64,000 nucleotides of DNA from Bacteroidota bacterium (GCA_016714005.1 JADJOA010000005.1:35027-99026), one strand, 5' to 3'. Shown: positions 1-64,000, numbered from the stretch's first letter. Notes: generated from the sequence alone by a model not told the origin. Translations and numbers: made by a program.

Positions 1-345
1 GCCTTACTTTCTAAAAATATTTTCTGTAGGGCTCCTGTCAATTTTGCTGTACTAATTTCGTGAAGTATTAATTGTGTATTACAGCAAATGTCCTGTTCAA
101 ATTCTGGCGCAGCAAAAAAACTATCAATCTGTATATTATTGTCAAAGCTTTGCAAATAGCTTTTGTTATAGGTAAAAGTAACTTTATTGGCAAGTACACT
201 ACCATCTTCGCTATCTGAATCAGCAATAGGAAAAATGTAGCGGAGAGATACCGAATCAGATTGATGGATTAACTGAGCGGTGCCCTTAATGCTGCCTACA
301 ACAGTGGATGAATGAAAGAGCAAGCCTGGTTTTATTTCAAGCATT
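1..345 (-). CDS. Hypothetical protein, partial (5' part; runs off window edge)
   Basis: Reverse-strand ORF starting ATG at ~345 (MLEIKPGLLFHSSTVVGSIKGTAQL...) continues to position 1 without stop; not in supplied ORF track because partial. No recognisable motif. Confidence 0.25.
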
Positions 346-531
346 TTTGTTAGGACTTAATAAGTTGGCTAAAATAAAACTGATTACTGCTCTTCTAATT
401 ATTTCAAAAAATAGTTGTTAACGAAATGTCATTTTAATGAGTAGATAATAATTATAGCCGACTTGCAAAAAATCATCTCTTTTAAGTAGTAATAATAAAA
501 TACTTTAATATTTTTCGCTCCACAAATAGCT

Positions 532-1301
532 ATGGACTATACTGAAGGTACTTTAAAGGCTGAACTGATTTCAATTACAGGTAAAGCAAAAAAACATTTT
601 GCCATCTTAATTATCGCTTTTGTTATACCATTAGTTATATCTGTATTTATTGGGTATAGAGATTTTCCTACCTACAACACCAAAATGCTAATTCGAATGT
701 CATTGCTTAGTGGCAGCGAATTGAGTTACTTTTTTAAAAGCTACCAGGATTTGTTGAATGCTCAGGATTACACAACCATAGAAAAAAAATTCTTTATAAG
801 TGAAAAGCATTCTTCAAAAATTAGACGCATTTGGATTGAAAAACTAAAAGATAAAAGTGATGGTTACATTATAAACTTATCGTGCTGTGATATTGACTGC
901 ATTAAACCTGTTGAGGAAGGAATTGGTTCTTTTATGCGTAATGAATCGGATGCAAACGAAAAAAACAAAATACGAAGGAAAGCACTTATTACACAAATAG
1001 ATTCTGTTAACAGCCAAATTGCAATAATGGATACTTTGGTAAGATCAATAAGAAGCAATAAGGGAATAGCAACTGATATTTATCCTTTTATGCAGCTTCT
1101 GCAACTATGAATTTATTACACTTGTACGATTTAAGAAACGATCTGAAAGAAAAATTGAGTACTACGGTTGGCTACAGCATTATAGATGGTTTTTTAATTC
1201 CTGAAAAACCTCAAACGCAAAGCCTGACAAAATTTGTAATCATAGGATTGATAGTTGGATTAGTTGTTTGTTATTTTTTGCTTAAAGAATTTTTGAGCTA
1301 A
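532..1301 (+). CDS. Wzz-like polysaccharide chain-length determinant protein, split into two ORFs (532-1110 and 1107-1301) overlapping by ATGA
   Basis: N-terminal TM helix (ILIIAFVIPLVISVFIGY), central hydrophilic/coiled region, C-terminal TM (FVIIGLIVGLVVCYFLL) = Wzz topology; sits immediately upstream of an O-antigen-ligase-like gene. Split may be genuine translational coupling or an indel. Confidence 0.35.
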
Positions 1302-3166
1302 TGCCTGAAAATGCTGAGTTAAACCTTACACAAAAGTGCTTTACATTTTTACTGTTTGTTTTAATCCCGGCTTCCTTTTTTCCTATTATATCAGATAATA
1401 CTTTATATCCGCGCTATTTGCTTTGGTCAATAGCATCAATTTTTTTTGTTATTACGGTTAAAGACTATTTGCTTCCGGTTAAACCTTTTGTTATTTCTAC
1501 AAACATTCTTTTATTATTGCTGATTTTATTGTCAGGGTATATTTTTATAACAAGTTTACTTTCCCGAAATGCAGCAGAGTCAATAACAGTGTTTTTGAAA
1601 TTCTTTCTGGTATTAACAACTGTTTTTTCTTTCTATCATTTATTTTTTACTACCTCCAACTTTTTTTCTACTGCAGTAAAATCTATAACTGCACTTTGTT
1701 TTTTGCTAGACGCAATTGCATTATGGCAGGTATTTAACTTTGATATTAATTTGTCAGATTACAATAGTATTATTCTGGTTACCTCACTCAATGGCAACAA
1801 AAATTTATATACCGAATTTTTAGTAATTAGTATTCCGTTTTGCTTTTTGGGTTTAAATAATCATAGTTTATGGTGGCGTTGTTTTTCACTGATCACAAAC
1901 TTTTTATCATTATGTGCAATCGTGTTTCTTCAGTCAAGGGGAGTTTGGGTTGCTTTTTTTGTAATGTTAATTGTATTTTTATTTGTAATCAACTTTAAAA
2001 AGTTTTGCAAATTCCATATAGTTACTGGCAAAATGATTTTCGCCATTTCAATAACCTTAGTTGTGCTTTTCTTATCAGTAAATTTTATAAATAACACTTT
2101 AAGAAATAGTTTGCTGAAGCGGGTTCATTCAATAGTTAATATTACGGAAAACGGATCGGCAAGCGGAAGATTAGTTCTATGGCAGAAGACAATGAATTTG
2201 ATAAAAGAAAATCCCATAGCAGGAATAGGAGGTAACAACTGGAAAATTGAATTTCAGCAATATGGTCAAAGTGAAATTACAAATATATTTAACGTGAGAC
2301 CAATGAATGATTACGTGTTGGCTGCTGCTGAATGGGGAATTCCGGGATTGCTCTTGTATTTATCAGTTTTTATTTATTGCATAATAGCCCTTGTAAAACT
2401 TTTGCAGAGAGAGCATGATGCCAAAGCAAAACAAAATCATATTGCAGTGCTTTGTTCATTGGTTGCTTTCATTGTAGTTTCTTTTTTTAGCTACACCAAC
2501 GAGCGCTCCGAAAACCTTATAATGCTATCTTTTTCTTTGGCTTATGTTGGATATTACATTAGTACTGAAGGAAGCCATACCAACCCTGCATCAAAGGCTA
2601 TAAGGTTAGTTTCTTTAGGAATTTTACTTTTTAGCACTGTGTTTTTCTTTTACAAAATAAAAGGAGAGTATTTCAATTATAAAATTCAAACAGCCAGAAA
2701 ATTTCAAAATCATACTGATGTTATTAACTATGCAGACAAGGCAATAAGTTCTTTTTATAATGTAGATGAAACTGGAACTCCAATAAAATGGTATAGTGGC
2801 GTGTCAAAATTTATTTTGGACAGAAGCGATGCGATTTCAGATTTTGAGTTAGCTTATGCAATTAATCCATATCACATTCATGTGCTGAATAATTATGCTA
2901 CAACTTTAGATAAAATCGGAAGACAGAATGAAGCTATTGATATTTATAAAGAGGCAATAAATATTTCTCCAAAGTTTAACGATGCCATTTTTAATTTAAC
3001 GGTGGTTTACTTTAATATGGGAAATTTTAAAGAAGCTTACGGCACCATCATAAAGTGGCATGGAAGAAAAAATGAAAACGTGTTTTATGTAACAAGTCTT
3101 TTGAAATCTAAACTGGGAATAAAACTTAGTAAAAGCGACAAGAAAACATTGTTACGTCATCAGTAA
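1301..3166 (+). CDS. O-antigen ligase/polymerase family (Wzy_C-like) polytopic membrane protein with C-terminal TPR repeats
   Basis: ~10 hydrophobic helices; loop motif 'IAGIGGNNW...MNDYVLAAAEWGIPGLLLYL' typical of the O-antigen ligase/Wzy_C periplasmic loop; C-terminal ~150 aa shows TPR-like repeats (AYAINPYH..ATTLDKIGRQNEAIDIYKEAINISPKFNDAIFNLTVVYFNMGNFKEA). Confidence 0.55.
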   Translation: MPENAELNLTQKCFTFLLFVLIPASFFPIISDNTLYPRYLLWSIASIFFVITVKDYLLPVKPFVISTNILLLLLILLSGYIFITSLLSRNAAESITVFLKFFLVLTTVFSFYHLFFTTSNFFSTAVKSITALCFLLDAIALWQVFNFDINLSDYNSIILVTSLNGNKNLYTEFLVISIPFCFLGLNNHSLWWRCFSLITNFLSLCAIVFLQSRGVWVAFFVMLIVFLFVINFKKFCKFHIVTGKMIFAISITLVVLFLSVNFINNTLRNSLLKRVHSIVNITENGSASGRLVLWQKTMNLIKENPIAGIGGNNWKIEFQQYGQSEITNIFNVRPMNDYVLAAAEWGIPGLLLYLSVFIYCIIALVKLLQREHDAKAKQNHIAVLCSLVAFIVVSFFSYTNERSENLIMLSFSLAYVGYYISTEGSHTNPASKAIRLVSLGILLFSTVFFFYKIKGEYFNYKIQTARKFQNHTDVINYADKAISSFYNVDETGTPIKWYSGVSKFILDRSDAISDFELAYAINPYHIHVLNNYATTLDKIGRQNEAIDIYKEAINISPKFNDAIFNLTVVYFNMGNFKEAYGTIIKWHGRKNENVFYVTSLLKSKLGIKLSKSDKKTLLRHQ

Positions 3167-4358
3167 ATGGCACCACTGTTCTGTAATTGTTTAGCTTAGC
3201 AATTATACGGTGGTGAAATTTATCAAGCATTTCATCTGATGAGTGACTAGCCAATAAATCAATCAGGTTTTCCATGCCGAACATTTCACCGGTTTTATTT
3301 TCCACATCGGTAATGCCATCTGTGTAACAAAACAAAATTGATTGAGGTGTGATTGAAAAATGCCCTTCATTTAAAAAAGGTAATTCATCAAACATGCCAA
3401 GCCCGGTTGTTCCTTTATCGAGCTGCTGATGATTAACACCATTATAAAACAAAGGAGGATTATGCCCGGCATTTATGTAATTAACCAAATTGTGAGCAAG
3501 GTTTATTTGCGCAATAAAAAAGGTGATAAATTTTTCGCCTTTTGCAATTTTGTTTACACACCGGTTTAACTCATGCACAATTTGCGCCAATGAGGCTTTT
3601 TGATTTACCAATGCATGCATGTTTGCCTGAAAATTTGCCATCAACATGGCAGCAGCCATTCCTTTTCCACTTACATCAGCCATACATAAGATAAACTCCT
3701 CATCACTTACTTTAATAAAGTCGTAATAATCTCCGCCTACATGCTGATGCGGTAAATAAAAAGCATCAACCTGCATGCGTGTGTGTGAATCAAGCGTAGA
3801 GGGGATTAACATTTCCTGTACCTCTGCTGCAAGTTCTAACTCTTTGCGCAAGGCAGCTTGCGCTATACTTTCTTTAGTAAGCCTTTTATTTTCTATCGCA
3901 ACAACAATAATGTTGGTTATGGTGTGAATAAATGGCAACACTTCACGTTTCGAAAAATCTTCACTGCCTTTTATATCTCCAATTAAAGCGTAAGCCAAAA
4001 GTTTATTGTTATGATAAACCGGTATGGCACTTTCATTTTTTTTCAACCATTCGGGGGCTGCAATTTTTTTTTCGTTAAGCGAGTTTAAACTGCCAGAAAA
4101 AACATCTGGATTTATTTCATTGTTTTCATCAAAGCCGAAAGAAAAAATTTTGTGCCAGCTTTCCTCATGTACAAAAAGCAAAGCCTTTCCTACCTGTAAA
4201 TGTTGCTGTAACACATTTTGATAAATGTTATAGAGCTGCGAAGCCTCTAAATTGTAATTAATGGCTTTGGTAATTTGCAACAACCAGTGCAGTTGTAGTT
4301 TTTTACTTTCTAATTCGAATTTACTTTCAATTGTCAATGGTGAATTGTGAATAGGCAA
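3126..4358 (-). CDS. GAF-domain protein serine phosphatase (SpoIIE/PP2C family, RsbU-like)
   Basis: C-terminal half has PP2C/SpoIIE signature (HVGGDYYDF...CMADVSGKGMAAAMLMANF...FCYTDGITD); N-terminal ~170 aa GAF-like. Its 3' end overlaps the convergent gene 1301-3166 by 41 nt. Confidence 0.65.
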   Translation of the reverse strand: MPIHNSPLTIESKFELESKKLQLHWLLQITKAINYNLEASQLYNIYQNVLQQHLQVGKALLFVHEESWHKIFSFGFDENNEINPDVFSGSLNSLNEKKIAAPEWLKKNESAIPVYHNNKLLAYALIGDIKGSEDFSKREVLPFIHTITNIIVVAIENKRLTKESIAQAALRKELELAAEVQEMLIPSTLDSHTRMQVDAFYLPHQHVGGDYYDFIKVSDEEFILCMADVSGKGMAAAMLMANFQANMHALVNQKASLAQIVHELNRCVNKIAKGEKFITFFIAQINLAHNLVNYINAGHNPPLFYNGVNHQQLDKGTTGLGMFDELPFLNEGHFSITPQSILFCYTDGITDVENKTGEMFGMENLIDLLASHSSDEMLDKFHHRIIAKLNNYRTVVPFTDDVTMFSCRFY

Positions 4359-4414: not shown

Positions 4415-5340
4415 TCAACTTTTTTTCCTGACCAAATCCGGCAAATACTTTAATGCTGCAATCTCCTTCATCTTTTCACGGGCTTCTTCTGCGGGTGAGC
4501 CAAAATATATTTTACCGGCTTTTAATGTTTGTCCTACTCCTGATTGTGCGAGCACAACTGCTCCTTTTTCAATAACAATATCGCTGCGCACACCTACCTG
4601 TCCCCACATGGTAACATTATCTTCAATTTTAACCACACCGGCAATACCAACCTGCGCGGCAAATAAGCAATTTTTACCAATAACGGTATCGTGCCCCACA
4701 TGCACATGGTTATCTAACTTGCTGCCTTTACCAATAACAGTGTTGCGACTTACACCTTTATCAATAGTTGACATTGCGCCAATTTCCACATCATCTTCTA
4801 TCACCACGCTTCCGCACGAATGCATTTTATCGTAAAACTCAGGTCTCTTTTTATAATAGAAAGCATCGGCACCTATTACGGTGTTGGCATGTATGATAAC
4901 GTTATCGCCAATGGTGCAGCCATCATACACAACCACTCCAGGATACAGCACACAATTTTTTCCAACAGTAACATCATTGCCCAGAAAAACATTAGGCATT
5001 ATGTTACTCCCCTCACCAACTTTTGCGCTCTTGCTCACCATTTCTTTTGAATAACTATTTGGAGAGAAGTGTTTGGTCAAAAATTATAATCCCTAAAAAG
5101 GATCATCACTAAACAAAAGCGACTTGCCTAAGGGGCATTTCACTTCTTTATTAATTAAAATGGTGGTGGCAGCGCTTGTTAAAGATTTGTCGTAATACTT
5201 TGGGTGATCAACAAAAAGTTAAATCCCCTGCTTCAACCATATGTATTTCGTTAATGCCGGTTACTGCAAAATTTTCATCGCCCGAAAATTTGGCGCTAAT
5301 AAGATTAGCAATTTCTTTAAGCGAATAGGAGCGGGGTAGC
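4415..5340 (-). CDS. lpxD: UDP-3-O-acylglucosamine N-acyltransferase (LpxD), interrupted by frameshift(s) between ~5080 and ~5210
   Basis: ORF 5208-5414(-) carries the LpxD N-terminus (MKLPRSYSLKEIANLISAKFSGDENFAVTGINEIHMVEAGDLTF); ORF 4415-5080(-) carries the hexapeptide-repeat left-handed beta-helix core and C-terminus (IGKNCVLYPGVVVYDGCTIGDNVIIHANTVIG...). The two parts are in different frames. Confidence 0.6.
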
Positions 5341-5576
5341 TTCATTTGTAGTGTTAAGACCTTTAAACAACAATTAAACTTGAAACAATTGTGAACAAAA
5401 GTAAAAATAACCAAATCATATTTGACATTTCTCTTTTACTTACCCTTAAAAATCCTACTTTCGCGACCCATTTTGGAAAACAAGAGATAGGGGATAAAAG
5501 TCAAAGGTCAAAAGATTAGGTAGGCTCAAGACACAAAACTCTGAACTCAAGACACAAAACTCCGAACTCATTTCAC

Positions 5577-7387
5577 ATGAATAACATCAGAAACATTGCC
5601 ATCATTGCCCACGTTGACCACGGAAAAACTACGCTGGTTGACAAAATTCTTCATCAGTCTAAAGTATTCAGAGATAACCAGGAAACCGGTGAACTCATTT
5701 TAGATAATAACGACCTTGAGCGTGAGCGAGGCATTACCATTGTTGCTAAAAACGTTTCGGTAACATACAAAGGCACCAAGATTAATATTATTGATACACC
5801 CAGGACGCAGATTTTGGCGGTGAGGTTGAACGTGTGCTTACAATGGCTGATGGAGTTTTACTTTTGGTTGATGCCTTTGAAGGGCCCATGCCACAAACAC
5901 GTTTCGTTTTACAAAAAGCTATCTCACTTGGTTTAAAACCAATTGTGGTAGTTAATAAAGTTGATAAAGAAAATTGCAGACCTGATGAAGTGCATGAGCA
6001 GGTTTTTGATTTGATGTTTCATCTTGAGGCTACTGAAGAGCAGTTGGATTTTCCTACATTTTACGGTTCTTCAAAACATGGGTGGATGAGCGCTGATTGG
6101 AAAAATCAGACTACAGATATTACCGCATTGCTGGATGGAATTATAGAACACATTCCTGCTGCACCTTATAACGAGGGTACACCACAGTTGCAGATTACAT
6201 CGCTTGATTATTCAAGTTATGTTGGGCGTATAGCCATAGGCAGATTACACCGTGGTGAGTTAAAGGAAAACATGCCTGTTAGTTTGGTAAAGCGCGATGG
6301 CACTATTAAAAAGAACCGCATTAAAGAGCTTTTTGTCTTCGAGGGCTTGGGTAGAAAAAAAGTTGCAGAGGTAAAATCAGGAGATATATGCGCCATTAAC
6401 GGTTTGGAAGATTTTGAAATTGGTGATACTGTTGCCGATTTTGAAAACCCTGAAGGATTAAAACCTATTGCCGTTGACGAGCCTACCATGAGCATGTTGT
6501 TTACCATTAACAACTCTCCGTTTTTTGGTAAGGAAGGTAAGTTTGTAACATCACGCCATTTGCGCGACAGATTATATAAAGAGACAGAAAAGAATCTTGC
6601 ATTGCGTGTTGAAGAAACGGATTCGCCCGATGCATATTTGGTTTATGGCAGGGGCATTTTGCATTTGTCTATTTTGATAGAAACAATGCGCAGAGAAGGA
6701 TATGAGCTACAGGTAGGTCAGCCGCAGGTTATTATTAAAGAGATAGATGGAATGAAGCATGAACCGGTAGAAAATTTAACAGTTGATGTACCCGGTGATG
6801 TTGCTGGTAAAGTAATTGAATTGGTTACTATGCGCAAAGGAGAGCTTTTGGTAATGGAACCAAAAGGAGATTTGCAGCATTTAGAGTTTACTATACCTGC
6901 ACGTGGTATAATTGGTTTGCGCAACAATGTGCTTACCGCTACAGCGGGCGAAGCAATTATGGCGCACCGTTTTAAGGCCTATGAAGCATGGAAAGGCTCC
7001 ATACCCGGGCGTATTGCCGGTGTGTTAATTGCAAAAGAGGCGGGTACTGCCACCGCTTATTCTATTGACAAGTTACAAGAGCGCGGAGCATTTTTTATTG
7101 ACCCGGGTGATGTTATTTACGGAGGGCAACTTATTGGCGAACATATACGCCCTACTGATTTAATTGTAAACCCCTGCGAAGCAAAAAAACTTTCTAACGT
7201 GCGCGCCACAGGCAGTGATGATGCTGCGCGCATTACACCCAAAAGAAATTTTTCCTTGGAAGAAGCCATGGAATACATTGGCAACGATGAGTATTTGGAG
7301 GTAACACCCAAAGCCCTCCGTATGCGCAAAATACACTTAGACGAAAACGTGCGCAAGCGCATGGAGCGTAAGTTGGAGAACGCTTAA
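5577..7387 (+). CDS. typA: Translational GTPase TypA/BipA, with apparent frameshift near 5806
   Basis: N-term '[22 protein letters not shown]...[11 protein letters not shown]...INIIDTP' then frame changes where '[13 protein letters not shown]' is expected (sequence 'cccaggacgcagattttggcggtgagg' reads DFGGEV in the other frame); remainder (5834-7387) matches TypA domains II-V. Confidence 0.85.
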
Positions 7388-7640
7388 AGGGAATTAGAAA
7401 TTATGAGTTATAAATTGCGCCAGCAACTCCAATCTGTGTGATAGCAAGTGTAAGAGCGAGAGGGGTTAGGGGGTGTGTTAAAACAATAGTTGCAAGGTAT
7501 TGTGCGTAAGCTCTGCTGACAGGTTTTGCTCAATTATAAAATGAAGTTTTTATTTCTTTTTTTTTCATTAATGGTTAAAACAGTTTTGTTTAATGAGTTG
7601 ATTAACTATTTAAGTTTGAAGTTCACTAATTAATTTGGTT

Positions 7641-8103: not shown

Positions 8104-9236
8104 TTGCATTCATTCTCTACAACCATGCTTACATCAGAAACAGTTACAGACACCACCCTCCAGCAAATTGCCGATAAAGTTTACGCCTCTAAAAGAATTA
8201 CGCCCGAAGAAGGCATTTATTTATACCAACATGCCGAGCTGGGTTTTGCTGGTGAACTTGCCAATTTCATAAGAGAAAAAAAGAACGGCAACAACACGTA
8301 CTTCAATCGTAACTATCATATTGAGCCCACCAACGTTTGTATTTTTTCTTGCAAGTTTTGCAGCTACAGCCAGGAGTATAAACATAAAGAGGAAGGATGG
8401 GAGTTAAGCAAGCAGCAAATAATGGATAAGGTGTTGAGCTATACTGATGATGCTGTTACCGAAGTGCACATAGTTGGTGGTGTTCATCCTAAAATGGACA
8501 TAAATTATTTTGCTGATGTATTACGCGAAATAAAAAAGGTTAGACCTAACCTGCACATCAAAGGCTTTACGGCTGTTGAGTTGGATTACATGATTCGTAA
8601 AGCAAAAATGGAGATAAAGAAGGTTTGCAATTTTTAAAGATGCCGGACTTGATTCTATACCCGGTGGTGGTGCCGAAATTTTTGGCGAAACCATCCATAA
8701 ACAAGTTTGTGCTGATAAATGCACCGGTGAGAATGGCTTTTTATACACCAAACTGCGCACAGTATTGGTTTAAAAGTAATGCCACTATGTTGTACGGACA
8801 TATAGAAAATTTTGCGCATCGTATTGACCACATGAACCGGCTGCGTTTGTTGCAGGATAAAACCGGAGGCTTCAATACTTTTATTCCGCTTAAATTTAGA
8901 AACAAGGATAATGACATGAGCCATGTTGCGGAAAGTTCGGTGATTGAAGATTTGCGTAACTATGCCATTGCAAGAATATTTATGGACAACTTTGATCACA
9001 TAAAAGCATACTGGCCCATGATAGGCAGACAAACTGCCCAACTTTCGCAAACCTTTGGTTTGGATGATTTGGACGGAACCATAGATGACTCAACAAAAAT
9101 TTACAGTATGGCAGGTGCCGAAGAACAAACACCTTCTTTAACAACAAACGAGTTAATTGATTTGATAAAGTCGGTTGGAAAAAACCCTGTTGAAAGAGAT
9201 ACTTTGTATGGTGTGATAAAAGATTATAAAAGCTAG
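8104..9236 (+). CDS. Radical-SAM menaquinone (futalosine pathway) enzyme, MqnC/MqnE family, with >=2 apparent frameshifts (~8628, ~8750)
   Basis: CxxxCxxC radical-SAM motif (CIFSCKFCSY), 'VHIVGGVHP' and 'SNATMLYGHIENFAHRIDHMNRLRLLQDKTGGFNTFIPL' typical of MqnC/MqnE. Between the two supplied ORFs the conserved 'DAGLDSIPGGGAEIF...CADK' and 'IHQTAHSIGLK' segments are readable in the other two frames; one shift lies in an A4/A5 homopolymer (ggtttaaaagtaat). Confidence 0.65.
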
Positions 9237-9809: not shown

Positions 9810-11177
9810 TTACATCAACGCCTTTGCAATATCATGCTTGGTAATGATGTAAGTTTTATCCTGTTTAAAATCCTTAATCATTACCGCTTTGTTTTTTTCA
9901 GAAATCATTTTTGATAACGCGCCCACCGAAGTAGTTGCATCTACAAACAAAAATGCTTCTTCCATTATTGTTTCTATGGGTTTGTGTTTTACTTCTTTAC
10001 CGCTTAGCAAGGATTGCAAAATTCTATCTTCACTCACCGAGCCAACAATCCTGCTGCCGTTTGTTACAGGCATTTGCGAAAAATTATTTGCAGTCATAAT
10101 TGAATATGCCTCTGCAATGGTTTTGTTTTGAGCTATCGTAAGCAGCTCAATGTTCTTTCTTGATTCAACCAAATCAAGCGCTGTCATTCCTTTTGCATCT
10201 AAATAGCCTTTGGCAAGCATCCACTCATCATTAAATATTTTGGCAAGGTAGCGCGAACCGTGGTCATGAAAAATAACAACCACTACATCTGTTGGTTTTA
10301 GTTTATCTTTAAGCTGATGCAATCCTGCAATAGCGCTGCCTGCACTGTTACCAACCCATATACCTTCTTTGCGTACAATATTACGCGTCATAACAGCAGC
10401 ATCTTTATCGGTAACTTTTTCAAAATGATCTATCACTTTAAAATCGTAATTCTCAGGAATAAAATCTTCGCCAATGCCTTCGGTTACGTAAGGATAAATT
10501 TCATTCTTATCCATTTTACCTGTTTCATGAAATGTTTTTAATACTGAACCATAGGTATCAATTCCCCATACTTTAATGTTCGGATTTTTTTCTTTCAAAA
10601 ATTTTCCTGTCCCAATAATGGTTCCGCCCGTACCTGCACCAACCAAAAGATGTGTAATTTTTCCATCGGTCTGCTCCCAAATTTCAGGTCCTGTTTGCTC
10701 ATAATGTGCTGGCGGTTACTTAAATTATCATACTGGTTTGCTTTCCACGAATTAGGAATTTCTTTTACCAATCTAGATGAAACAGAATAATAAGAACGTG
10801 GGTCTTCAGGATCAACATTGGTAGGACAAACAATTACATCGGCACCAAAAGCCTTAAGCGCATCTACTTTTTCTTTAGATTGTTTATCGGTAGTGGTAAA
10901 AATACATTTATACCCTTTTATAATGGCAGCAATAGCTAGTCCCATTCCGGTGTTACCGCTGGTTGCCTTCAATAATAGTTCCACCCGGTTTTAATGCTCC
11001 CGTTTTTTCGGCATCCTCAATCATCTTTAGCGCCATACGGTCTTTAATAGAGTTACCCGGATTAAACGTTTCAACCTTGGCAAGAACCGTGGCAGAAATA
11101 CCTTCCACAACTTTATTTAATTTAACCAAAGGAGTGTTGCCAATTGCGTCTAATATATTGTTGCAAATTTTTTTCAT
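9810..11177 (-). CDS. Cystathionine beta-synthase-like protein (PLP-dependent CysK/CBS fold + C-terminal CBS-domain pair), split by 2 apparent frameshifts
   Basis: Three co-linear minus-strand ORFs: N-term '[11 protein letters not shown]...[23 protein letters not shown]' (PLP lysine motif), middle '[45 protein letters not shown]', C-term with cysteine synthase core plus two CBS-type modules. Confidence 0.65.
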
Positions 11178-11296
11178 TAAAGTATTAATAAATATTTGGG
11201 AGGCGAAGATAAAAAATGAATTCGCAAAAACTTTAGAGTAACTATTTTAGGTTTCATCAATAGTTTTATGACTTTAGCCGATAAAATTTAAAGCAA

Positions 11297-16729: not shown

Positions 16730-16747
16730 TAAATCTCAAGCAGGTTT

Positions 16748-17356: not shown

Positions 17357-17419
17357 CTGTATAGCAAATTCAGGTTACTGAAAATGCTAAGTCAGTGCAT
17401 TACTTCTATTGCGGAAGTT

Positions 17420-54400: not shown

Positions 54401-54609
54401 ACGGAAGCAACAAGCTTATGCTAAAGATTAAAGACGATGGCGTTGGGTTTGCCACACATGCCACTGTAGGTAGCAATGGTAAAAGCGAAGCCTTTGGTGG
54501 CAACGGCTTAGCCAGCATGCGCAAACGCGCCCACGAGTTGGAAGGAACAGTAACCATCAATTCAGAAATAAACAAAGGAACTGAAGTGGTATTAGAGTTT
54601 AAGATTTAA
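51462..54609 (+). CDS. Hybrid-architecture sensor histidine kinase: signal peptide, two-component-regulator beta-propeller repeats, Y_Y_Y domain, TM helix, HisKA_3 + HATPase; broken into >=4 ORFs by frameshifts
   Basis: Propeller repeats ('YMWFSSKDGLNRYDGYHITVF', 'FWIGTSSKGVCLYD', 'LWVGTNGTGLNRFEY', 'LWLSTNNGLSC'); Y_Y_Y-like 'KKQYAYRLLGFDNNWIPNGAKNAATYTNLPHGSYTFQVKG'; TM 'WWFKLAVLLAVAGGLYALY'; H-box 'RIAADLHDEIGSTLSSIAL'; G-boxes 'DDGVGF', 'GNGLASMRKRAHELEG'. Confidence 0.7.
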
Positions 54610-54663: not shown

Positions 54664-55338
54664 ATGCAAACAATAAAGGTAGCCGTATTTGACGATAACA
54701 ACCCACGCAGGGAGTTATTGCAACTCCTGCTTAACAGCAGCTAAGGACTTACATGCACAGGCGCGTATGAAGACTGCCGCAATGTGGTAAGTAACATAAC
54801 TGCCAATATACCTGATGTGGTGCTGATGGATATTGACATGCCTTACGTTAACGGCATTGAAGGATTAAAACTTATCCGCAAACATGTTCCCGATGTTAAG
54901 GTACTTATGCAAACCATTTTTGAAGACGAGGATAAGATATTTGATGCCATAGTTGCCGGTGCCGATGGTTACCTGCTAAAGAAAACACCGCCCGCCAAAC
55001 TCCTCGAAGCCATTGCCGATGTAGTACAAGGTGGCGCACCCATGACACCTACCGTAGCCTAACAAGTGCTGATGCTTTTCCACAACAAACACCACAGCAT
55101 TCCCAAAAACAACTTTGACCTTACCACCCGCGAACAAGAAATACTTGGCTACCTGGTACAGGGATTAAGCTATAAGATGATAGCTGCCAAATGCAACATC
55201 AGCTACCCAACGGTTAACTCGCACATAAGCCACATTTACGAAAAGCTTCACGTTAGCTCAGGCACCGAAGCAGTGGCTAAAGCTATTGAGCATAACATTA
55301 CGGGGTCAAATAAAATTTCGATGTTGCTGAGTTTTTAA
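54664..55338 (+). CDS. Response regulator, NarL/LuxR family (REC + HTH_LuxR), 2 apparent frameshifts (~54740, ~55062)
   Basis: 'MQTIKVAVFDDN' start; 'PDVVLMDIDMPYVNGIEGLKLIRKHVPDVKVLMQTIFEDEDKIFDAIVAGADGYLLKKTPPAKLLEAI' (REC); 'LTTREQEILGYLVQGLSYKMIAAKCNISYPTVNSHISHIYEKL' (LuxR HTH). Confidence 0.7.
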
Positions 55339-55389
55339 ATAGTGTTTTACCATTCACTAAAAAATTACATACACTATAATCCAAACTGC

Positions 55390-56271
55390 TTAAATAATTT
55401 TATAGTTCCTGTATTCACCAACCCGCCAGCCAGTTACTTTTTCAATTCCATGAAGTAACTTTCCCTTAGTTGAAAATCTTTTTCTGAATGGGTCAAAATC
55501 AAAATGCCAGTTTTTTTCGGCAATTCTTTTTTGCATAACAGATGGATGTGTACCGGTAAATCTTTTTAAAGAGTCTATGCCTGTGTAATCAAACTCATCA
55601 GCTTTAGCAACATTTTTTTCTACCCAGTCATCGTTATGCCAAAGTTTATGAAACTGTTTTTGTTTTTCCTGCTGCTTTGATGGTGGCTTTACCCAGCCAT
55701 AGTGATAAACCTCTGCATCTACGGGTTTTACTTTCATCAGCCTGTTATCAATCCTAAAGCCTTGCGCATCTCTAAAAGACTTAACACCGGCATTATTTCT
55801 CACCACACGTATTTCATTTCGGTACCATTTGCGCGAGTCGCCAATAAAATCGTAAGAGCCGTAAAAGTGAACATACTTCAGTAGAAGACCTTCAACTCTT
55901 TTGTCATCTTTAAACTTCAGCATCGCTTCCCGCAAAGCTTTGTGGTGTTTTTCATGTATTACTTCATCTGCCTGCATATAAAAAGCCCAGTCACTGTCTT
56001 TCGAAACCTTTTGCAAAGCTTTATCTGTTTCGGCAGCAAGCGCTCTGCCGCCTTCGCGCAAAGAATCATCCCAAATGCTGTCAAATATTTTTATTTTGGG
56101 TGATGTAATGGACTCAATCAAACCTCTTGTTTCATCTTCGGAATTACCAACCAAAACGATCATCTCATCACACAAAGGAAGAATAGAGTTGATGGATTCA
56201 ACAACGGGATAATCAAACTTTATGGCGTTGCGCACAAAAGTAAATCCGCTTACTTTAACATCTTTACTCAT
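55390..56271 (-). CDS. Glycosyltransferase-like protein (293 aa)
   Basis: N-terminal 'VSGFTFVRNAIKFDYPVVESINSILPLCDEMIVLVGNSED' resembles GT-A fold glycosyltransferases; translationally coupled (ATGA) to the upstream GT2 gene; intact ORF. Confidence 0.45.
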   Translation of the reverse strand: MSKDVKVSGFTFVRNAIKFDYPVVESINSILPLCDEMIVLVGNSEDETRGLIESITSPKIKIFDSIWDDSLREGGRALAAETDKALQKVSKDSDWAFYMQADEVIHEKHHKALREAMLKFKDDKRVEGLLLKYVHFYGSYDFIGDSRKWYRNEIRVVRNNAGVKSFRDAQGFRIDNRLMKVKPVDAEVYHYGWVKPPSKQQEKQKQFHKLWHNDDWVEKNVAKADEFDYTGIDSLKRFTGTHPSVMQKRIAEKNWHFDFDPFRKRFSTKGKLLHGIEKVTGWRVGEYRNYKII

Positions 56272-57028
56272 GGTTGTTTTCCTTTATAAAGATTTTTAAG
56301 CTTAACGTATTTTAAAAAAGTAGAGTAGGAGTTGTTGCGGCAAATGATGTAACCGTAAAAGCCATCTCGCCAGCCGCTCAACAAAAAATAATCGCGCACA
56401 AAACGGTAAAACGGGTTAAACAAAATTTTAAACCAACTGCTTTTTTTTCCTGACTTAAATTCTGCGCAGCACTAATGCTGCTGAACTTGTTGAGTTGAAT
56501 AATATGCTCTTCTAAAGTGTAATAGCTGTAATGTAAAATATCGCCTTTGAGATGAATAATTGTATTTCTGTTTTCAGGAATCAACTCATCGTGCGGGTTA
56601 ACACCACCCCATTTGGCAGTTTTGTGTTTAATGAGTCGTACTTTTTTATCAGGGTACCAGCTACCGTGTTTAATCCATTGCCCGCAATAATTTGTGAGCC
56701 GGTTCATTGAATAAGAATTATTTGCTGCCGATGTTTTAACCAAACTGATTTCTTGCTTCAACTCATCGCTTAAAGCCTCGTCAGCATCAAGCGATAAAAT
56801 AAAATCGGAAGTTGCCTGGTCTAATGCAAAGTTCTTTTGTTCAATATGTCCTTTAAAGGGGTTTTGAATAAAAGTTGCTCCGTATTCTTTACAAATGGCT
56901 TCAGTTCTGTCTGTACTAAAGCTGTCAACCACAATAATTTCATCGGCAATTTCTTTAACCGAAGCTAAGCATCTGCCAATGTTCTTTTCCTCGTTAAGCG
57001 TTATAATTACTACCGATAGTGTTGTCAC
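56269..57028 (-). CDS. Family 2 glycosyltransferase (WaaE/KdtX-like LPS core type), frameshift in an A8 homopolymer near 56440
   Basis: 'LSVVIITLNEEKNIGRCLASV...IIVVDSFSTDRTEAI...LSLDADE' GT2 DxD-type motifs; C-terminus '...GWRDGFYGYIIC...' readable in another frame after 'gaaaaaaaagc'. Confidence 0.6.
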
Positions 57029-57187
57029 AAAGAATAAATTTTTTGCGAAGAAAAGGTTTTATTTTTAGTCTTAAATAAACTTGAGGTTTTAAACAGAAGC
57101 TGCTAGTAATGTTATTAAATTGTTTCCGTAAGGTTAACAAGGCATACTTCTTTTTATACATTCGCACTCTTTAATCCCCAACCTGTT

Positions 57188-57832
57188 ATGTCTCTTTCCT
57201 TTCTTAAAATTTTTGTTCCGCAGGACAAAAAGTTCTTTGTATTGTTTGATAAAGCCGCTCTTAACCTTAGCGAAGCCGGTAAAGCAAGGGCTAAATTGGT
57301 AAGTGCCAATACAAAAGAAGAGCGCCAGCACATGTTTCGCGGAATTGAAAAAATAGAGCACATAGGCGATGAAATTACCCATGAGATATTTAGAGAGCTT
57401 TCTAAAAACTTTATTACACCGTTTGACCGCGAAGACATACACCGCCTTGTAAGCGCTATTGACGATATTGTAGATTACATACATGGCTCAAGCAAGCGTA
57501 TTGAACTTTACAAGGTAAATGAGTGTACTACCGAAATGATTAAACTGAGTGAATTGCTTCAGACACAAACCGAAGAGTTGCGCAGAATCATTTATGAGCT
57601 AAAGAATATGGATAAGGTTCGTAACATATCAGAATCGCTGGTACTTATCAACAGCATAGAGAACCATGCTGATGATATTTTTGATAATGCCGTTGCACGT
57701 TTATTTGAGAGCGAAACCAATGCCATTGAGATAATCAAACAAAAGGAAATTCTTTCGGCATTAGAAACGGCTACCGATATGTGCGAAGATGCCGCTAATG
57801 TAATTGATTCCATTATTGTTAAAATGGCGTAA
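57188..57832 (+). CDS. DUF47 (PhoU-like, TIGR00153) Pit-accessory protein
   Basis: 214-aa all-helical protein with pattern matching DUF47/YkaA-type proteins that pair with PitA; immediately upstream of a PiT-family transporter. Confidence 0.6.
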   Translation: MSLSFLKIFVPQDKKFFVLFDKAALNLSEAGKARAKLVSANTKEERQHMFRGIEKIEHIGDEITHEIFRELSKNFITPFDREDIHRLVSAIDDIVDYIHGSSKRIELYKVNECTTEMIKLSELLQTQTEELRRIIYELKNMDKVRNISESLVLINSIENHADDIFDNAVARLFESETNAIEIIKQKEILSALETATDMCEDAANVIDSIIVKMA

Positions 57833-57856
57833 CTTTTAAACAGCGTCAAAATCTTA

Positions 57857-58852
57857 TGGAGATAAACCTACTTGTTATTGTAATCATACTTTGCACTGAT
57901 ATTTGATTTTATAAACGGATTTCATGATGCAGCCAATTCCATAGCCACTGTTGTTTCTACAAAAGTACTTTCACCGGTTACGGCAGTTTTGTGGGCGGCA
58001 TTGTTTAATTTTTTAGCCTACTGGATATTTGAATTGAAAGTTGCTGATACGGTTTCTAAAACTGTGCGCACCGAGAATATTACCTTAGTTGTTGTGTGTA
58101 GCGGACTTATTGCGTCTATCATTTGGAATTTACTTACCTGGTGGTGGGGAATACCCTCATCATCATCTCACACATTAATTGGTGGGTTTGCAGGTGCCGG
58201 TATAGCACATGCCGGCACTTTTCATGCAGTGCAGTTAGATAAAGTAATGCCTGTTGTTTATTTTATTGTGCTTGCTCCGCTTATAGGTTCCATTATGTCA
58301 TGGATTATTTCTGTTATCACATTAAACATTTGCAAACGATCAAGCCCAAGCAAGGTTGATAAAGTTTTCAGAAGGCTGCAATTGCTTTCATCGGCAGCAT
58401 ACAGTTTGGGGCATGGTGGTAACGATGCCCAAAAAGTAATGGGAATAATAGGCGCTGCCATGCTGGCAAACGGACAAATAGCAGACTTAAAACACATTCC
58501 CGAATGGGTGCCACTTGCTTGTTACACCGCCATAGCTTTAGGAACAATGTTTGGTGGATGGCGTATTGTAAAACAATGGGGCAACGCGTTACAAAGCTTA
58601 CTCCTTTTGAAGGATTTGCTGCAGAAACAGCAGGAGCAATAACACTATTCGAACACAACATTTTAAAATTCCGGTTTCAACTACACATACTATTACAGGA
58701 TCTATTATTGGTGTAGGGTTAACAAAAAGAATTTCTGCAGTAAGGTGGGGAGTAACGCTGCAATTAATATGGGCATGGGTGCTCACCATACCTGTTTCAG
58801 CAGGGTTAGCTGCTCTTATTTTTTATATTTGGAATGCGTTAGCTAGTTAGTT
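57857..58852 (+). CDS. pitA: Inorganic phosphate transporter, PiT family (PitA), >=3 apparent frameshifts
   Basis: Across frames: 'DFINGFHDAANSIATVVSTKVLSP' (N-terminal PiT signature), 'GHGGNDAQKVMGIIGA' (second signature), C-terminal 'IPVSTTHTITGSIIGVGLTKRISAVRWGV...AWVLTIPVSAGLAALIFYIW'. Confidence 0.75.
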
Positions 58853-58947
58853 CGCATTAATTTTAAGTGTTTTCTTCCTAGAGGCTTTAACTGCGTTTTT
58901 CTTATATCAATTAAAAGTTATTTTCGTGCCTCCAAAAAAATTAAATA

Positions 58948-59639
58948 ATGATAAAACAATTTTCAGCGCTTGCATTGATATGTTCAGTAAGTGCATGTGC
59001 ATTTGCACAAAACAACAAAGAAGTGGTTCTGAAAAATCAGAGCGACTCTATTAGCTATGCAATTGGTTCAAGCATAGGAGGCAGTTTAAAAAAAGATGGG
59101 TTAGATGCATCTCTCAATCTTGATATTTTAAAAGCGGCAATGGAAGCAGCTTTTAAAGGGCAAAGCCTTTTAATAGACGGTAATCAAGCTCAACAAGTTC
59201 TTAATGCATACTTTGCAGAGCAACAAGCTAAAAAGGAAAAGAGGCTATAGAAAAGGACAAAAGTTTTTGGCCGAAAACAAAAAACGCCGGTGTGGTAGAA
59301 TTACCAAGTGGTTTGCAGTATGAAATATTGAAACCAGGTACTGGTCCAAAACCAACTAAGGAAGATAAAGTTACAACACACTACCACGGCACAACCATAG
59401 ATGGGAAAGTTTTTGATAGTAGCGTTGAGCACGGTCAGCCTGCACAATTTGGCATTAGCCAGGTTATTGCTGGATGGACAGAGGCTTTACAATTAATGCC
59501 TGTAGGCAGCAAATGGAAATTGTTTATACCATCGAACCTTGCCTACGGTGAGCGTGGCGCAGGAGGCAACATAGGGCCTAATGAAACTTTGGTTTTTGAA
59601 GTGGAGCTTATATCAATTGATAAAGAGCCTGCCAAATAA
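58948..59639 (+). CDS. FKBP-type peptidyl-prolyl cis-trans isomerase (FkpA/Mip-like: N-terminal dimerisation domain + FKBP domain), frameshift near 59255
   Basis: Signal peptide (MIKQFSALALICSVSACAFAQ); FKBP domain 'GLQYEILKPGTGPKPTKEDKVTTHYHGTTIDGKVFDSSVEHGQPAQFGISQVIAGWTEALQLMPVGSKWKLFIPSNLAYGERGAGGNIGPNETLVFEVELISI'. Confidence 0.75.
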
Positions 59640-60291: not shown

Positions 60292-61560
60292 TTAACGTAT
60301 CAAAACATTGTCAACTCTGTAATTGCTTGTTTGTCCTGTAGCACCATTTCCTACATACTTAAATCCAATAAAACCTGTTCCGGTAAAACCACTAAGGGAA
60401 ACATTACCTGAAGGAACAAAGGTATTAGAACCTGATGTGCCGGTAGCAAGATTGCATGTAAGAGGAACCCATGTGGCGGCAGATGGATTACAAACGTCAA
60501 AATTTTGTGAGAACCAAACAGATAATCCGTCCTGAACCCAAAAAGATTGTGCAGACTCAAATGAAAGTGTATCGGCACTGGTTAAATCAAATGGTGGGGA
60601 AACAAGCCATGTTTCTACTGCTCCGTTTGACTGATATGCTGTAGCTTCTGGATAGGAGTTACCGCCAGATGATTTACCCAACCAGCTTTTTTCGCCAGTT
60701 ATTGTCATGCTTAGCCAGCCGGTATCGCTTACGGCTACATTGGCGGCAATACCTGTAAAATTCTCTTCAATAGTATCAAAAGGTACAGTTATAGTTCCAC
60801 AGCGGTCTATATTCATATCCAAATCTTCAGTATTTCTCAAAAATATCTGAGCAGTACTTCCATAAAATTGAACTACACCGCGCACCATACCACCTTTACA
60901 TGGAATAACAGAAGAGGCAAAATTTGCAAAACCACTTGTTCTAACAATTATTGTCCCCGAACCGCAATCCTGTAAGTACCTGTTTACATCAGTTTGTGTT
61001 ATGGCATCGGCAAATGTTTTTCCAATATCGGCAGACTGAAACTGTACTGTATCAAACTCAACAAGTGTGTTAATATCAGTACTGTTAATTTGTGATAATT
61101 TTTTCTTTTTGGCTGTTACTTCAAGGTTCCACTTCCCAGGAAAAAAGTGACTTGTTATAGATGTATTTGGAATGCGCGCTAATGCTCCATTTTCTATAGA
61201 GCCAATTTTTATGTTACCATCAACACTGGCAATATATAATCCCCGTAGTTTAATAAATACCCTGCGTCCGATAGGGTAGGTGGTGTAATATTCACTTTGG
61301 TCTATAAGCACGCTGATTCCGGCAGTGTTATCCTGCAGCACAATTTCTTTGTAAAAGTTACCAGATTTATCATCGGCAGCTACTATACCTACGCATATTA
61401 AATCATCGTTTATATAGGTTGGGTTTACTCCATTAACTGCCAGCGTTAGCAAACTGTCAAATTCAATGTTGGCTGTTAAATTGGGGTCAACATTGGTCGA
61501 TGGAGTATCACTGTCATAATCATCTTTTTAACGCAGGATGTGGTTAAACTGATAACAGCA
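60292..61560 (-). CDS. Hypothetical surface lipoprotein (~420 aa) downstream of a TonB-dependent receptor; frameshift in an A5/A6 run near 61470
   Basis: Start readable at ~61560 (MIKSIKTFPVLLLAVISLTTSC = signal + lipobox Cys) then frame change at 'gttaaaaagatg'; remainder 60292-61452. Confidence 0.4.
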
Positions 61561-61639
61561 AGAAGCAATACCGGAAATGTTTTAATTGATTTTATCATTG
61601 TATTAAAATTTTATCTGTTTAATTCTTTGTTTTGATTTT

Positions 61640-64000
61640 GTTTTTAATTCATTCTTAAAATAAAGCTCAGCATATAAGTTCTTCCAAATGCATAGCTAAA
61701 CTTTGGAGCAAAAATATCCACATCGCGCTCAGTATATCCTACTCTGTCAAGCCTGCCTTGCTCATATCCATTGGTAATAATATCGGTGTTGTCAAGCAGG
61801 TTGTTTTACATTTAAGTAAACAAGAAAAAACGTATTGCGTTTTAACGACTTAAATTTATTGTTGAGCTTGTATGACCAACCGGCTGATAGGTCTAAAGTA
61901 AACTGACCGTCAGTGCGTTGTTGCGAAAGAAGGTTTTTCCATGTTTCGCTGTCCTTTTCTATGTTTTGCAAAGCATCATCAGTTCTTCGTGCCGGGCTGA
62001 AATCAAAATAGCTGTTGGCAAAATAGTTGGCGGATAAACCTACATTCCAAAATTTTGTAGAGCGGTAATTTACCCCAAACGCATAAGCATTTTGTGGAGT
62101 TAACTCCACATGCAGGTTTTTAATGTAAACAGTTTCACCTGTTGAGTTTACAGTATTTGTATTATCTATAGTAATTGTTGCAAGTGGTCGGCTGCTATAA
62201 AAATAACTGCCTATGGCAGCAGCGGCTGTTGCCGAAAATCCTTTGCCCAAATTAGCATCAACAGAAAGTTCTGTTCCTGAGTGCGTTCTTTCAATATCCG
62301 TTAAAGTATAGTTGATGTAGCTTTTAAAACTACCATAATCAAGATAAAAGCTTCTGTTTTCTATAGCATCATTAAAAATGGTATGATAGAAAACAGCTTT
62401 TGCTTTAAGGCGTGGCGCTGTATAAAGATAACCCCCTTCAACTGAAGTAATTTTTTCGTTAGTAACATCATCAACCACCACATCGCGCGTGCGGGGAGAC
62501 ACAAAAACATTGTCAAACAAAGGTGCGCGTGTGAGGTAGGCTGCATTTGCAAATAAGTAATTACGTCCGTTTACTTTGTATGTAGCTCCGCCTTTTAAGC
62601 CAATGTCAGAGAATCTTAGTTTTTCTGACTTGCCGAAAGAATTATCGGGAAACAAACCGTTTTTATAATTGCCTTCTCTGAACATGGTGGTGCTGGTTGT
62701 ACTTATTGCGCCAAAAACATCTATTCGGTCAAATTTGGCATTAGCCTGGCTCACACATTTACCTTGCTGACATGTGCTTCGTAATCGTAACCAAATTTAT
62801 CACCTTCTCTAACAATCCTGTTAGGGTTATTTAAGTCATTCTGACTTGCCGATGGGTCACCCTGAAAATCAATGGCTGCATATTTATCAATATCTAAATA
62901 AAAATCGGCACCAAGCAAATCTTCAATCTCTTTATAAAAGCGAGAACTTTGCGATTGATAATTAGCACCTGCATTAATGGTAACATTATCACCGGCAAGT
63001 GTGGCGTAGTAAGTGCTTATAGATTGACGTTGTGTTTCAGTAATCCTGTTCTCAATAATGTAAAGCGCTTTACGACCTGTTACTGAGTTTCCGGCAATGC
63101 CATCAACATTATTTACAGTTTCAATGTTGCGGTAATTTGCAGCAACCAAATCATCCCACTGAATTTGTAACAAGTCAGGATTATTCTTGAGCTTTTGCTC
63201 GGTAAAAGCAGCAAGAGCAGCATCTTCATAGTAAGAAGGTAAATAGCGGTAGTAAGTAGGGCGTGGGTCTGGTGCATCAATCCAGTTTAACGATGTTGAC
63301 CTCTTTTACCTGAAGTATAAGAGACAGCAGAAGTTAAAGAAGATTTATTGCTTATTTTCCAGTCGTGCGAAAAAATATAAAGTGGCTGATAATTTGTACC
63401 AATATTTGAATTTCGCACTTTACCACCCTGATAGCCCCAGTTTGAATTGTAGTAATTATCGCCAGTTAAATCGTAAACTTCCTGTGTGTTTGCCGAACTG
63501 CGTGCACTTTCTACACTACTTGCAAGCATGGTTAAAGATAACTCGTGCTTGTTTGTAATTTTTGAAATGCCTGCATAGTATGCAAATCCATCGTAGTAGG
63601 TTCCCTTAACAAAGCCCTCATTGGCCCACCTACGCGAAATGGAAGCGCTAAACGCCCATCCTTTGTTCAAAATACCTGAACCATAAGTAAGCATAAAACG
63701 ATTATCGTATGTTCTGTTACTTAAACCATAAGTGGCAGATAATTGCTTTCTCTGGCGAGTTGCTCTTGAGTCTATACTTGAAGTGCCTCCAACAGAGCCA
63801 AATGAATAATTGGCAGGAGTAAGCCCTCTGGTATTTTCACGCGAGCGCAGCACATCATTTAACCCACTCCAGCTTGAATATGCGGTGCGCCCGTTGTATA
63901 AATCGCTTTCTTCAATTCCATTCATTAGGGTAATGCTGTTAACGTCATCATATCCTCTGGCTTTAAATCGAGCAATGCTCCAGTTAAAGTTGGCGGCACT
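61640..64000 (-). CDS. TonB-dependent outer-membrane receptor, partial (N-terminus beyond window end), fragmented by frameshifts
   Basis: Co-linear minus ORFs 63287-63925, 62751-63173, 61792-62754 plus tail to ~61640 ('...GYEQGRLDRVGYTERDVDIFAPKFSYAFGRTYMLSF...') show beta-barrel strand periodicity and Tyr/Asn/Gly-rich loops typical of TonB-dependent receptors. Confidence 0.55.

Follow-up and report, generated by a model that had tools for sequence, protein, structure and literature searches.

In a 64,000-nt stretch of DNA from an uncultured Bacteroidota bacterium (hereafter the window), many genes appear as series of co-linear fragments, raising the question of whether they are broken in the organism itself or in its assembled sequence. 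The initial annotation had counted more than 40 pervasive frameshifts and ascribed them most probably to homopolymer indels left uncorrected in a long-read or low-coverage assembly, naming massive pseudogenisation as the alternative. By comparison with other assemblies, we directly verified 59 indel events of 1-2 nt in the comparable ~52 kb, exceeding that count. No other assembly compared shares the indels, which depend on run length and sequence motif and whose removal restores the compared genes. Judged from sequence comparison, the gene breaks almost certainly arose as errors in the consensus of a long-read metagenome assembly, an artefact and not biology, because the compared genes are intact in other assemblies of the same species.

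Reference assemblies

The window was compared with Logan contigs (L001-L021) and with a contig (L102) of the NCBI MAG GCA_035356635.1 over positions 1-32666, 35054-41338 and 51436-64000. The Logan contigs derive from 10 other SRA runs (SRR17347193, 195, 198, 209, 220, 231; SRR28981378, 381; SRR30605900, 901), covering 45.5 kb of the window with 98.6-100% identity over the matches, and the NCBI MAG represents a strain ~98.5% identical to the window and structurally different from it. The region at 41.5-50 kb has no close reference; since this locus is structurally different between strains, a reference-based indel count was impossible there, and an estimate from homology-supported reading frames was used in its place.

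In GTDB, the closest relatives are Bacteroidota MAGs from the environment, including a complete genome of 3.7 Mb. An exact 48-mer of the window was absent from GTDB representative genomes and JGI metagenomes, and exact-protein look-ups gave no match for the ORFs at 24249-25082, 32891-35791, 39424-41334, 50615-50935 and 53020-54609 or for P0121; in the cases later given a reference, the look-ups missed because the ORF is a fragment or carries private substitutions. A literature search on the accessions of the runs, assembly and proteins gave no relevant paper.

Indels private to a single assembly

Logan contigs support 56 of the 59 indels, and the three others, in aroB, rocD and the PKD_6 gene, come from the NCBI MAG alone (Table 1). 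At each of the 56 sites with Logan coverage, the covering contigs without exception show an allele different from that of the window, in concordance with one another, with a single contig giving the support from 58652 onwards; the NCBI MAG agrees with them at all 8 shared events, located at 23.9-28.2 kb. The indel sites are non-polymorphic among the 10 run-level assemblies and the 98.5% strain, and a lesion-sharing test found 0 lesions in common with any of them. Over the compared sequence, the lesions are the 59 indels plus two nonsense substitutions that fall in the same gene.

Table 1. Affected features of the window; run lengths are given as true→window
Feature	Position (strand)	Length (aa)	Lesion in the window	Support
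Hypothetical gene	499..1298 (+)	256 in references	T5→T4 at 1086	5/5 contigs
SpoIIE-domain gene	3129..4333 (-)	401	GG→G at 4317	5/5 contigs
lpxD	4418..5347 (-)	309	A6→A5 at 5079, A4→A5 at 5095, A4→A5 at 5213	
typA/bipA	5577..7387 (+)	603	C lost at 5805, G>A at 5802; true CCCGGGC	
Intergenic	7557..7558		T7→T9	One covering contig
Radical-SAM menaquinone (mqn) gene	8104..9236 (+)	371	Deletions 8616 (A4→A3), 8636 (A4→A3), 8731 (GG→G), 8772 (A5→A4)	
cbs (PALP + CBS domains)	9810..11246 (-)	455	C lost in CCTGG at 10709, T inserted at 10963	
DUF5074 gene	11778..12823 (-)	346	T5→T4 at 12332	
Two genes (Por_Secre_tail; DUF4465 + Por_Secre_tail)	12804..14884 (-)	332 each	A3→A2 at 13281, T5→T6 at 14208	
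TonB-dependent receptor	14808..16757 (-)	640	G5→G4 at 15114, T5→T4 at 16591, A5→A4 at 16680	
DUF6580 gene	16761..17374 (-)	186	T6→T5 at 16790, A lost in CCAGG at 17137, T8→T6 at 17170	
Hypothetical gene	17649..18123 (+)	149	A6→A5 at 17892 and 17906	
NIDO/Por_Secre_tail surface protein	18730..20579 (-)	605	T7→T6 at 18744, CA lost at 19640 (true CAGCTG), G3→G2 at 20255	
Intergenic and 5' leader of PKD/CHU_C gene	20742..20895		T8→T7 at 20742, T7→T6 at 20744, A8→A6 at 20750, T5→T4 at 20887, T4→T3 at 20895	
porP/sprF	23189..24239 (+)	342	T5→T6 at 23919	Logan and NCBI MAG concordant
PD40-repeat gene	24243..26221 (+)	655	Deletions 24983 (A5→A4), 25183, 25191, 25298 (T5→T4)	
CHU_C surface protein	26193..27867 (+)	541	T4→T3 at 26459, T lost in CCTGG at 27740	
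aroA	27916..29154 (-)	412	T4→T5 at 28197	
aroB	29126..30178 (-)	350 in NCBI MAG; 322-aa ORF in window	A3→A4 at 29244	NCBI MAG
rocD (ornithine aminotransferase)	31326..32558 (-)	402 as called in NCBI MAG; 410 from upstream ATG (merged query)	A5→A4 on gene strand at 31824-31828	NCBI MAG
TPR gene	35857..36740 (+)	289	T5→T4 at 36495	
PKD_6/Por_Secre_tail surface protein	38956..41334 (-)	792 in NCBI MAG; 636-aa ORF in window	A4→A3 at 39439	NCBI MAG
Collagen-like/tail-fibre-like paralog A	41506..45202 (-)		At least 6 co-linear fragments	No same-strain reference
Collagen-like paralog(s) B	45798..49970 (-)		About 7 frame switches	Homology
Y_Y_Y/HisKA_3 sensor kinase	51462..54609 (+)	1049	A7→A6 at 51856, A5→A4 at 52990	
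Response regulator	54667..55341 (+)	224 in references	No indel; in-frame stops from private substitutions at 54742 (T vs G) and 55060 (T vs A)	
Family 2 glycosyltransferase	56271..57170 (-)	297	T lost at 56466 (true CTGCAG), T5→T6 at 57044	
pitA/PHO4 phosphate transporter	57823..58847 (+)	331	Insertion 57892, deletions 58574 (A5→A4), 58652 (GG→G)	
fkpA (FKBP_N + FKBP_C)	58945..59639 (+)	231	A6→A5 at 59235, A5→A4 at 59255, AG lost in CCAGG at 59289	One contig
Intergenic, beside fkpA	59672		C lost	One covering contig
DUF5689 gene	60295..61610 (-)	435	T6→T5 at 61525-61530	One covering contig
CarboxypepD_reg TonB-type receptor	61647..64000 (-), runs off window	925	T3→T4 at 61807, CC→C at 62753, C3→C2 at 63302	One contig

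The affected genes are whole in the reference contigs, among them lpxD, typA, the mqn gene, cbs, aroA, aroB and rocD, and the window is otherwise 99.7-100% identical to these intact versions. When the window was edited at the 56 Logan-supported indels only, single ORFs were obtained with lengths matching the gene calls of the contigs. The rocD indel had been predicted from the protein junction before a reference was seen. Selection has left no visible mark on where the indels fall: 51 of 56 events are within ORFs, approximating the coding fraction, and essential genes are struck repeatedly. Error density is uneven, at 0.2-0.5 per kb in 28.6-41.3 kb vs 1.1-1.7 per kb elsewhere, and in the paralog-rich 41.5-50 kb, where the homology-supported reading frames switch about 12 times, we estimate roughly 12-17 more frame changes.

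These comparisons uphold most of the split genes named in the initial annotation (typA, lpxD, the mqn radical-SAM gene, cbs, aroA, rocD, pitA, fkpA, porP, both TonB-type receptors, the sensor kinase and the surface-protein genes), with the exception of the regulator, which carries stop-creating substitutions and not a frameshift. Beyond those genes, aroB is split too. Regarding individual sites, the A4 proposed in place of an expected A5 at ~8765 was found at 8772, and the shift assigned to an A5 run at ~61470 does occur in such a run but really lies at 61525-61529, as T5 on the + strand vs a true T6. The A8 run blamed at ~56440 proved to be innocent, the T8 run at 56443-56450 being identical in 5/5 contigs and the error being the missing T at 56466. 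Among the long ORFs described as intact, the 621-aa ORF is exactly so, the 783-aa ORF holds the intact 771-aa PKD/CHU_C gene, and the 966-aa ORF looks intact, with Pfam domains up to the C-terminus and a comparison that covered only its last ~740 nt (35054-35791).

Error spectrum

Deletions outnumber insertions in the window by 48 to 11 (p = 1e-6), and 36 of the 56 Logan-supported events fall within true homopolymers of at least 4 bases, although 11% of bases belong to such runs (p = 5e-21). The errors per run rise from 0.04%, 0.1%, 0.2% and 1% for true run lengths of 1-4 to 6%, 7%, 9% and 21% for lengths of 5-8. This dependence alone does not discriminate between explanations, because mutational slippage in vivo likewise increases with run length. 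Outside homopolymers, 4 of 16 indels (10709, 17137, 27740 and 59289) lie in CCWGG, whose 33 sites represent 0.36% of bases (p = 3e-7 in a post hoc test, eight motifs having been tried), and a further CCAGG→CCGG change occurs in paralog A. None of the 16 falls in GATC, CCGG or CCSGG, and GCGC holds one, without enrichment (p = 0.15). CTGCAG, GGCC and CAGCTG hold one indel each, too weak for interpretation. Taken with the privacy of the indels, the run-length dependence, the 4:1 deletion bias and the CCWGG excess strongly support the assembly-error origin first proposed.

Some shifts do occur in A/T runs, as would be expected if programmed ribosomal frameshifting or transcriptional slippage rescued the genes in vivo. 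However, these runs are short, mostly 4-6 nt, many sites lie outside any run, no common slippery motif or downstream structure accompanies them, and all other assemblies have these genes in frame at every site compared, making such a rescue vanishingly improbable.

Substitutions and strain-variable patches

In 1-13 kb and 56.7-64 kb there are 14 isolated private substitutions, every one of them nonsynonymous, again without a mark of selection. Clustered substitutions, ~50% synonymous, occupy 15523-15695 and 51.4-56.7 kb, and these clusters show real strain variation or recombination patches in the window. Outside the two patches, substitutions amount to ~0.06% and indels to ~0.12% between the window and the contigs. 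The response regulator stops sit inside a patch truly differing between strains, beside the sensor-kinase region, and could be real rather than errors.

The same clusters, together with the structurally different strain of the NCBI MAG, speak for a consensus blurred by co-assembled strains, with indels where the strains of the sample differ and not from basecalling. Such blurring would be expected to leave mostly substitutions and in-frame differences, whereas the indel sites are invariant among the ten run-level assemblies and the 98.5% strain, and their dependence on run length and CCWGG indicates signal-level errors. As the source of the indels it is very unlikely; it too would be an artefact of assembly, and some of the substitutions may stem from it.

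Collagen-like paralogs and deposited fragments

Differences in run length between the paralogous 5' ends (ggcaaagcc vs ggcaaaagcc and others) had been pointed out earlier, and we confirm them, with paralog A as the deviant copy against both paralog B and the MAG orthologue. In a three-way alignment of these sequences, paralog A has 6 or more indels within its opening ~500 nt. Two window ORFs of this region, 42757-43539 and 45798-46988, whose ends are a product of the frameshifts, are letter-identical to the NCBI proteins MBK7854799.1 (locus tag IPJ79_07700) and MBK7854803.1 (locus tag IPJ79_07720), respectively. Both proteins are annotated as "MAG: Bacteroidetes bacterium" and lie on one 237,460-bp contig; therefore, the window is evidently a piece of that MAG deposit.

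Discussion

Genuine, recent genome-wide pseudogenisation in a host-restricted or relaxed-selection lineage would account for many broken genes, some struck several times, for a slippage bias at homopolymers that is also a real mutational one, and for a response regulator with two private nonsense substitutions. In genomes under reductive evolution, such as those of Mycobacterium leprae and Sodalis glossinidius, the same lesions recur across a lineage, nonsense mutations, deletions and IS insertions are among them, and pseudogenes decay. The window resembles these genomes in its large share of interrupted genes but differs in that its lesions are private indels of 1 nt, set in sequence that is identical apart from them. 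All indels are private to the assembly, the 10 run-level assemblies and a 1.5%-divergent strain keeping the genes intact, and the sequence 3' of each shift is undecayed. Moreover, the ratio of substitutions to indels outside the patches is unlike natural divergence, loss of bases within CCWGG is not known as a mutational signature, and neither large deletions nor IS elements occur in the window. Environmental MAGs with ~3.7-Mb genomes are the nearest relatives, and the gene content, with T9SS cargo, TonB receptors and a full aromatic amino-acid pathway, would suit a free-living organism. Pseudogenisation is contradicted by the data and extremely unlikely.

In the favoured explanation, that of consensus errors, the window is a stretch of a deposited MAG whose consensus retains ~1.1 small indel errors per kb and scattered substitutions. 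Noisy long-read basecalling of the nanopore type would miscount homopolymers, mostly one base short, and miscalls at the CCWGG motif, probably methylated, would be a second source. Each error shifts the frame, such that ORF finders and the NCBI annotation split ~70% of genes into co-linear fragments. From the error spectrum, we infer a nanopore platform with incomplete short-read polishing. The IPJ-series locus tags (IPJ79) may belong to the set of activated-sludge MAGs obtained by nanopore sequencing that Singleton et al. described in 2021. That pipeline combined Canu, Racon, two rounds of medaka and one Illumina Racon round (Singleton et al. 2021, Nat Commun 12:2009, PMC8012365), and would leave such residual errors at low Illumina coverage. 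The NCBI label "MAG: Bacteroidetes bacterium", the long contig (237 kb) and the IPJ-series tags would all fit a MAG of that set.

Dcm CCWGG motifs and homopolymer lengths are the two main classes of ONT consensus errors (Wick et al. 2019, Genome Biol 20:129, PMC6591954). As in R9.4-era consensus sequences, the differences in the window are dominated by indels, increase with homopolymer length, are mostly deletions and include a CCAGG/CCTGG excess, and identity to accurate data is ~99.7-99.9% (PMC6591954). Unlike the Klebsiella benchmark, in which CCWGG accounts for ~70% of consensus errors (PMC6591954), the window has 4-5 CCWGG errors among about 60, a low share that partial polishing or partial methylation would fit. 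There is also a slim chance that a minority of the private lesions is real, the regulator stops at 54742 and 55060 being the best candidate, or that the population is a mismatch-repair-deficient lineage with real homopolymer indels.

The gene boundaries, "pseudogenes" and short "hypothetical proteins" of the window are untrustworthy, and at least two frameshift-made fragments, MBK7854799.1 and MBK7854803.1, are already in NCBI. Findings from the window that rest on frames, ORF lengths or homopolymer tracts should be checked first against corrected sequence, intact gene versions being obtainable from the Logan contigs and GCA_035356635.1. If the regulator stops are real, the strain would have lost that two-component system.

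Genes broken in the window are whole in other assemblies of the species

The ORF listing of the window contains short co-linear ORFs in long same-strand runs. The 621-aa Wzy_C/TPR ORF at 1301-3166 is intact, and the same protein was found on five Logan contigs, which are assemblies of other SRA runs of the same species, from five separate runs. Its neighbours lpxD (309 aa), typA/bipA (603 aa) and a radical-SAM menaquinone gene (371 aa) are whole on those five contigs, as are cbs (455 aa) and a DUF5074 gene (346 aa), and each of these five genes is fragmented in the window. Over window positions 1-13162 the longest Logan contig aligned at 99.83% identity (8 mismatches, 15 gap positions), and wherever contigs overlapped, all five gave the same reading, against that of the window.

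Further Logan contigs were retrieved by exact look-ups of small ORFs (18225-18650, 36783-37166 and 55390-56271), yielding a reference set of ten runs from three accession series that covers 1-28636, 35054-39367 and 51436-64000, the sites from 58652 onwards being covered by a single contig. Additionally, a merged rocD query matched a 99%-identical protein in the NCBI MAG GCA_035356635.1; its contig L102, representing a strain of about 98.5% identity, was compared over a 21-kb stretch and added coverage of 28637-32666 and 39368-41338. A 4.1-kb segment (32667-36792), encoding a 966-aa DUF7619/Por_Secre_tail protein and a TPR protein, is missing from L102 and is therefore a strain-specific insertion or deletion.

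Indels private to the window account for the fragmentation

Comparison with the Logan contigs and L102 identified 59 indel events of 1-2 nt in total. After alignment-ambiguous placements inside one run had been merged, every covering contig carried the non-window allele at 56 of the 56 Logan-covered events. The 1.5%-divergent MAG confirmed the same eight events at 23.9-28.2 kb and contributed three more, in aroB (29244), rocD (31828) and a PKD_6/Por_Secre_tail gene (39439); for rocD, the protein junction of the two fragments implied an A5 read as A4, and L102 showed the predicted site. With the 56 Logan-supported corrections alone, each gene that is split within the covered regions became a single ORF whose length matches the gene call on the reference contigs.

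The indels hit about 28 of about 40 genes, several of these three or four times; among the genes hit are lpxD, typA, aroA, aroB, the mqn gene, cbs, rocD, pitA, fkpA, porP, those for two TonB-type receptors and the sensor kinase, and most of those for type IX secretion cargo. Since the share of events inside ORFs (51/56) approximates the coding fraction, the events show no depletion by selection.

Among the individual shifts proposed in the initial annotation, an A4 in place of A5 near 8765 was rightly identified as a shift, its exact site being 8772-8775, and a shift in an A5 near 61470 is real, though located at 61525-61529. An A8 suspected near 56440 (T8 at 56443-56450) is the same in five of five reference contigs; the true lesion nearby is a T lost at 56466, inside a true CTGCAG. 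The response regulator, also thought to be frameshifted, is instead disrupted by in-frame stops (Table), adjoined by a 140-nt patch with 14 substitutions (55137-55278), and these stops may be either errors or a real loss.

Table. Coordinates of the response regulator and of two ORF fragments with database entries
Feature	Position	Strand	Observation
Response regulator	54667-55341	+	Two private in-frame stops via substitutions at 54742 (T vs G) and 55060 (T vs A)
ORF fragment, 260 aa	42757-43539	-	Letter-identical to NCBI MBK7854799.1, locus tag IPJ79_07700
ORF fragment, 396 aa	45798-46988	-	Letter-identical to NCBI MBK7854803.1, locus tag IPJ79_07720

The collagen-like locus and adjacent repeats

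The minus strand of 41506-49970 holds two or three tandem paralogous genes for collagen-like (GXY repeat)/tail-fibre-like surface proteins, with 46-47% GC against about 37% elsewhere in the window. The structure of this locus is strain-variable, L102 carrying a single 1006-aa gene. A three-way alignment of two paralog 5' ends and the MAG orthologue revealed at least six private indels in one paralog, among them the run-length differences quoted in the initial annotation. Along the locus, homologue-supported reading frames switch about 12 times; the total for the whole window is therefore roughly 70-75 indels, about 1.1 per kb. The two tabulated fragments are deposited as separate hypothetical proteins of "MAG: Bacteroidetes bacterium" on the same 237,460-bp contig, each being the only member of its 90% cluster in the protein collection. 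Since frameshifts created the ends of both fragments, the window must come from that deposit.

Next to this locus, 50171-51378 contains at least 12 copies of a unit of about 27 nt, TGTCATTCCGAACGCAGTGAGGAATCT, in both orientations and on both sides of a 106-aa GIY-YIG ORF (50615-50935), partly arranged in 44-nt and 65-nt tandem arrays. A perfect hairpin of 28 nt occupies 50260-50318, and L102 has the repeats as well. Elsewhere, 17420-17555 on the minus strand matches the cobalamin riboswitch (RF00174, 54.6 bits), and the genes of the minus-strand run downstream of it (DUF6580, TonB-dependent receptor, DUF4465, a Por_Secre_tail gene and DUF5074) probably form a B12-uptake operon.

The error spectrum and its origin

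The proportion of runs miscounted rises with true run length, from 0.04%, 0.1%, 0.2% and 1% for runs of one to four bases to 6%, 7%, 9% and 21% for runs of five to eight. Runs of at least 4 bases hold 36 of 56 events in 11% of bases (p = 5e-21), and the window shows 48 deletions against 11 insertions (p = 1e-6). In 4 of the 16 non-homopolymer events a base was deleted inside CCAGG or CCTGG (p = 3e-7; 33 such sites, 0.36% of bases), a post hoc test with eight motifs tried and a large margin; the affected paralog of the collagen-like locus supplies a fifth case, CCAGG to CCGG. According to Wick et al. 2019 (PMC6591954), nanopore basecallers leave consensus errors mainly of two classes, at Dcm CCWGG motifs and in homopolymer lengths, and both are present in the window.

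Isolated private substitutions (1-13 kb and 56.7-64 kb) look random, 14 of 14 being nonsynonymous. Substitutions clustered at 15523-15695 and 51436-56700, distinguishing the window from all Logan contigs, are synonymous in about half of cases and probably reflect true strain variation or recombination patches, not errors. Indel density is 0.2-0.5 per kb at 28.6-41.3 kb, including a 2.5-kb stretch without any difference from the references, and 1.1-1.7 per kb in other parts, an unevenness that may stem from variable polishing. IPJ-series locus tags probably mark the set of nanopore-based MAGs from activated sludge described by Singleton et al. 2021. The pipeline of that study (PMC8012365) combined Canu, Racon, two medaka r941 rounds and one Illumina Racon round, and would leave such residual errors where short-read coverage is low.

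Because the lesions are private to the window and their spectrum is platform-typical, genuine pseudogenisation, a consensus built from a strain mixture and programmed frameshifting are each contradicted or demoted, and the uncorrected assembly errors proposed from the sequence initially are upheld. The closest GTDB species, with only 80% TypA identity, are environmental Bacteroidota MAGs, one of them a complete 3.7-Mb genome; nothing among them hints at a host-restricted symbiont, the setting suggested for pseudogenisation. From these sequence comparisons, we infer that the frameshifts of the window are a sequencing and assembly artefact.
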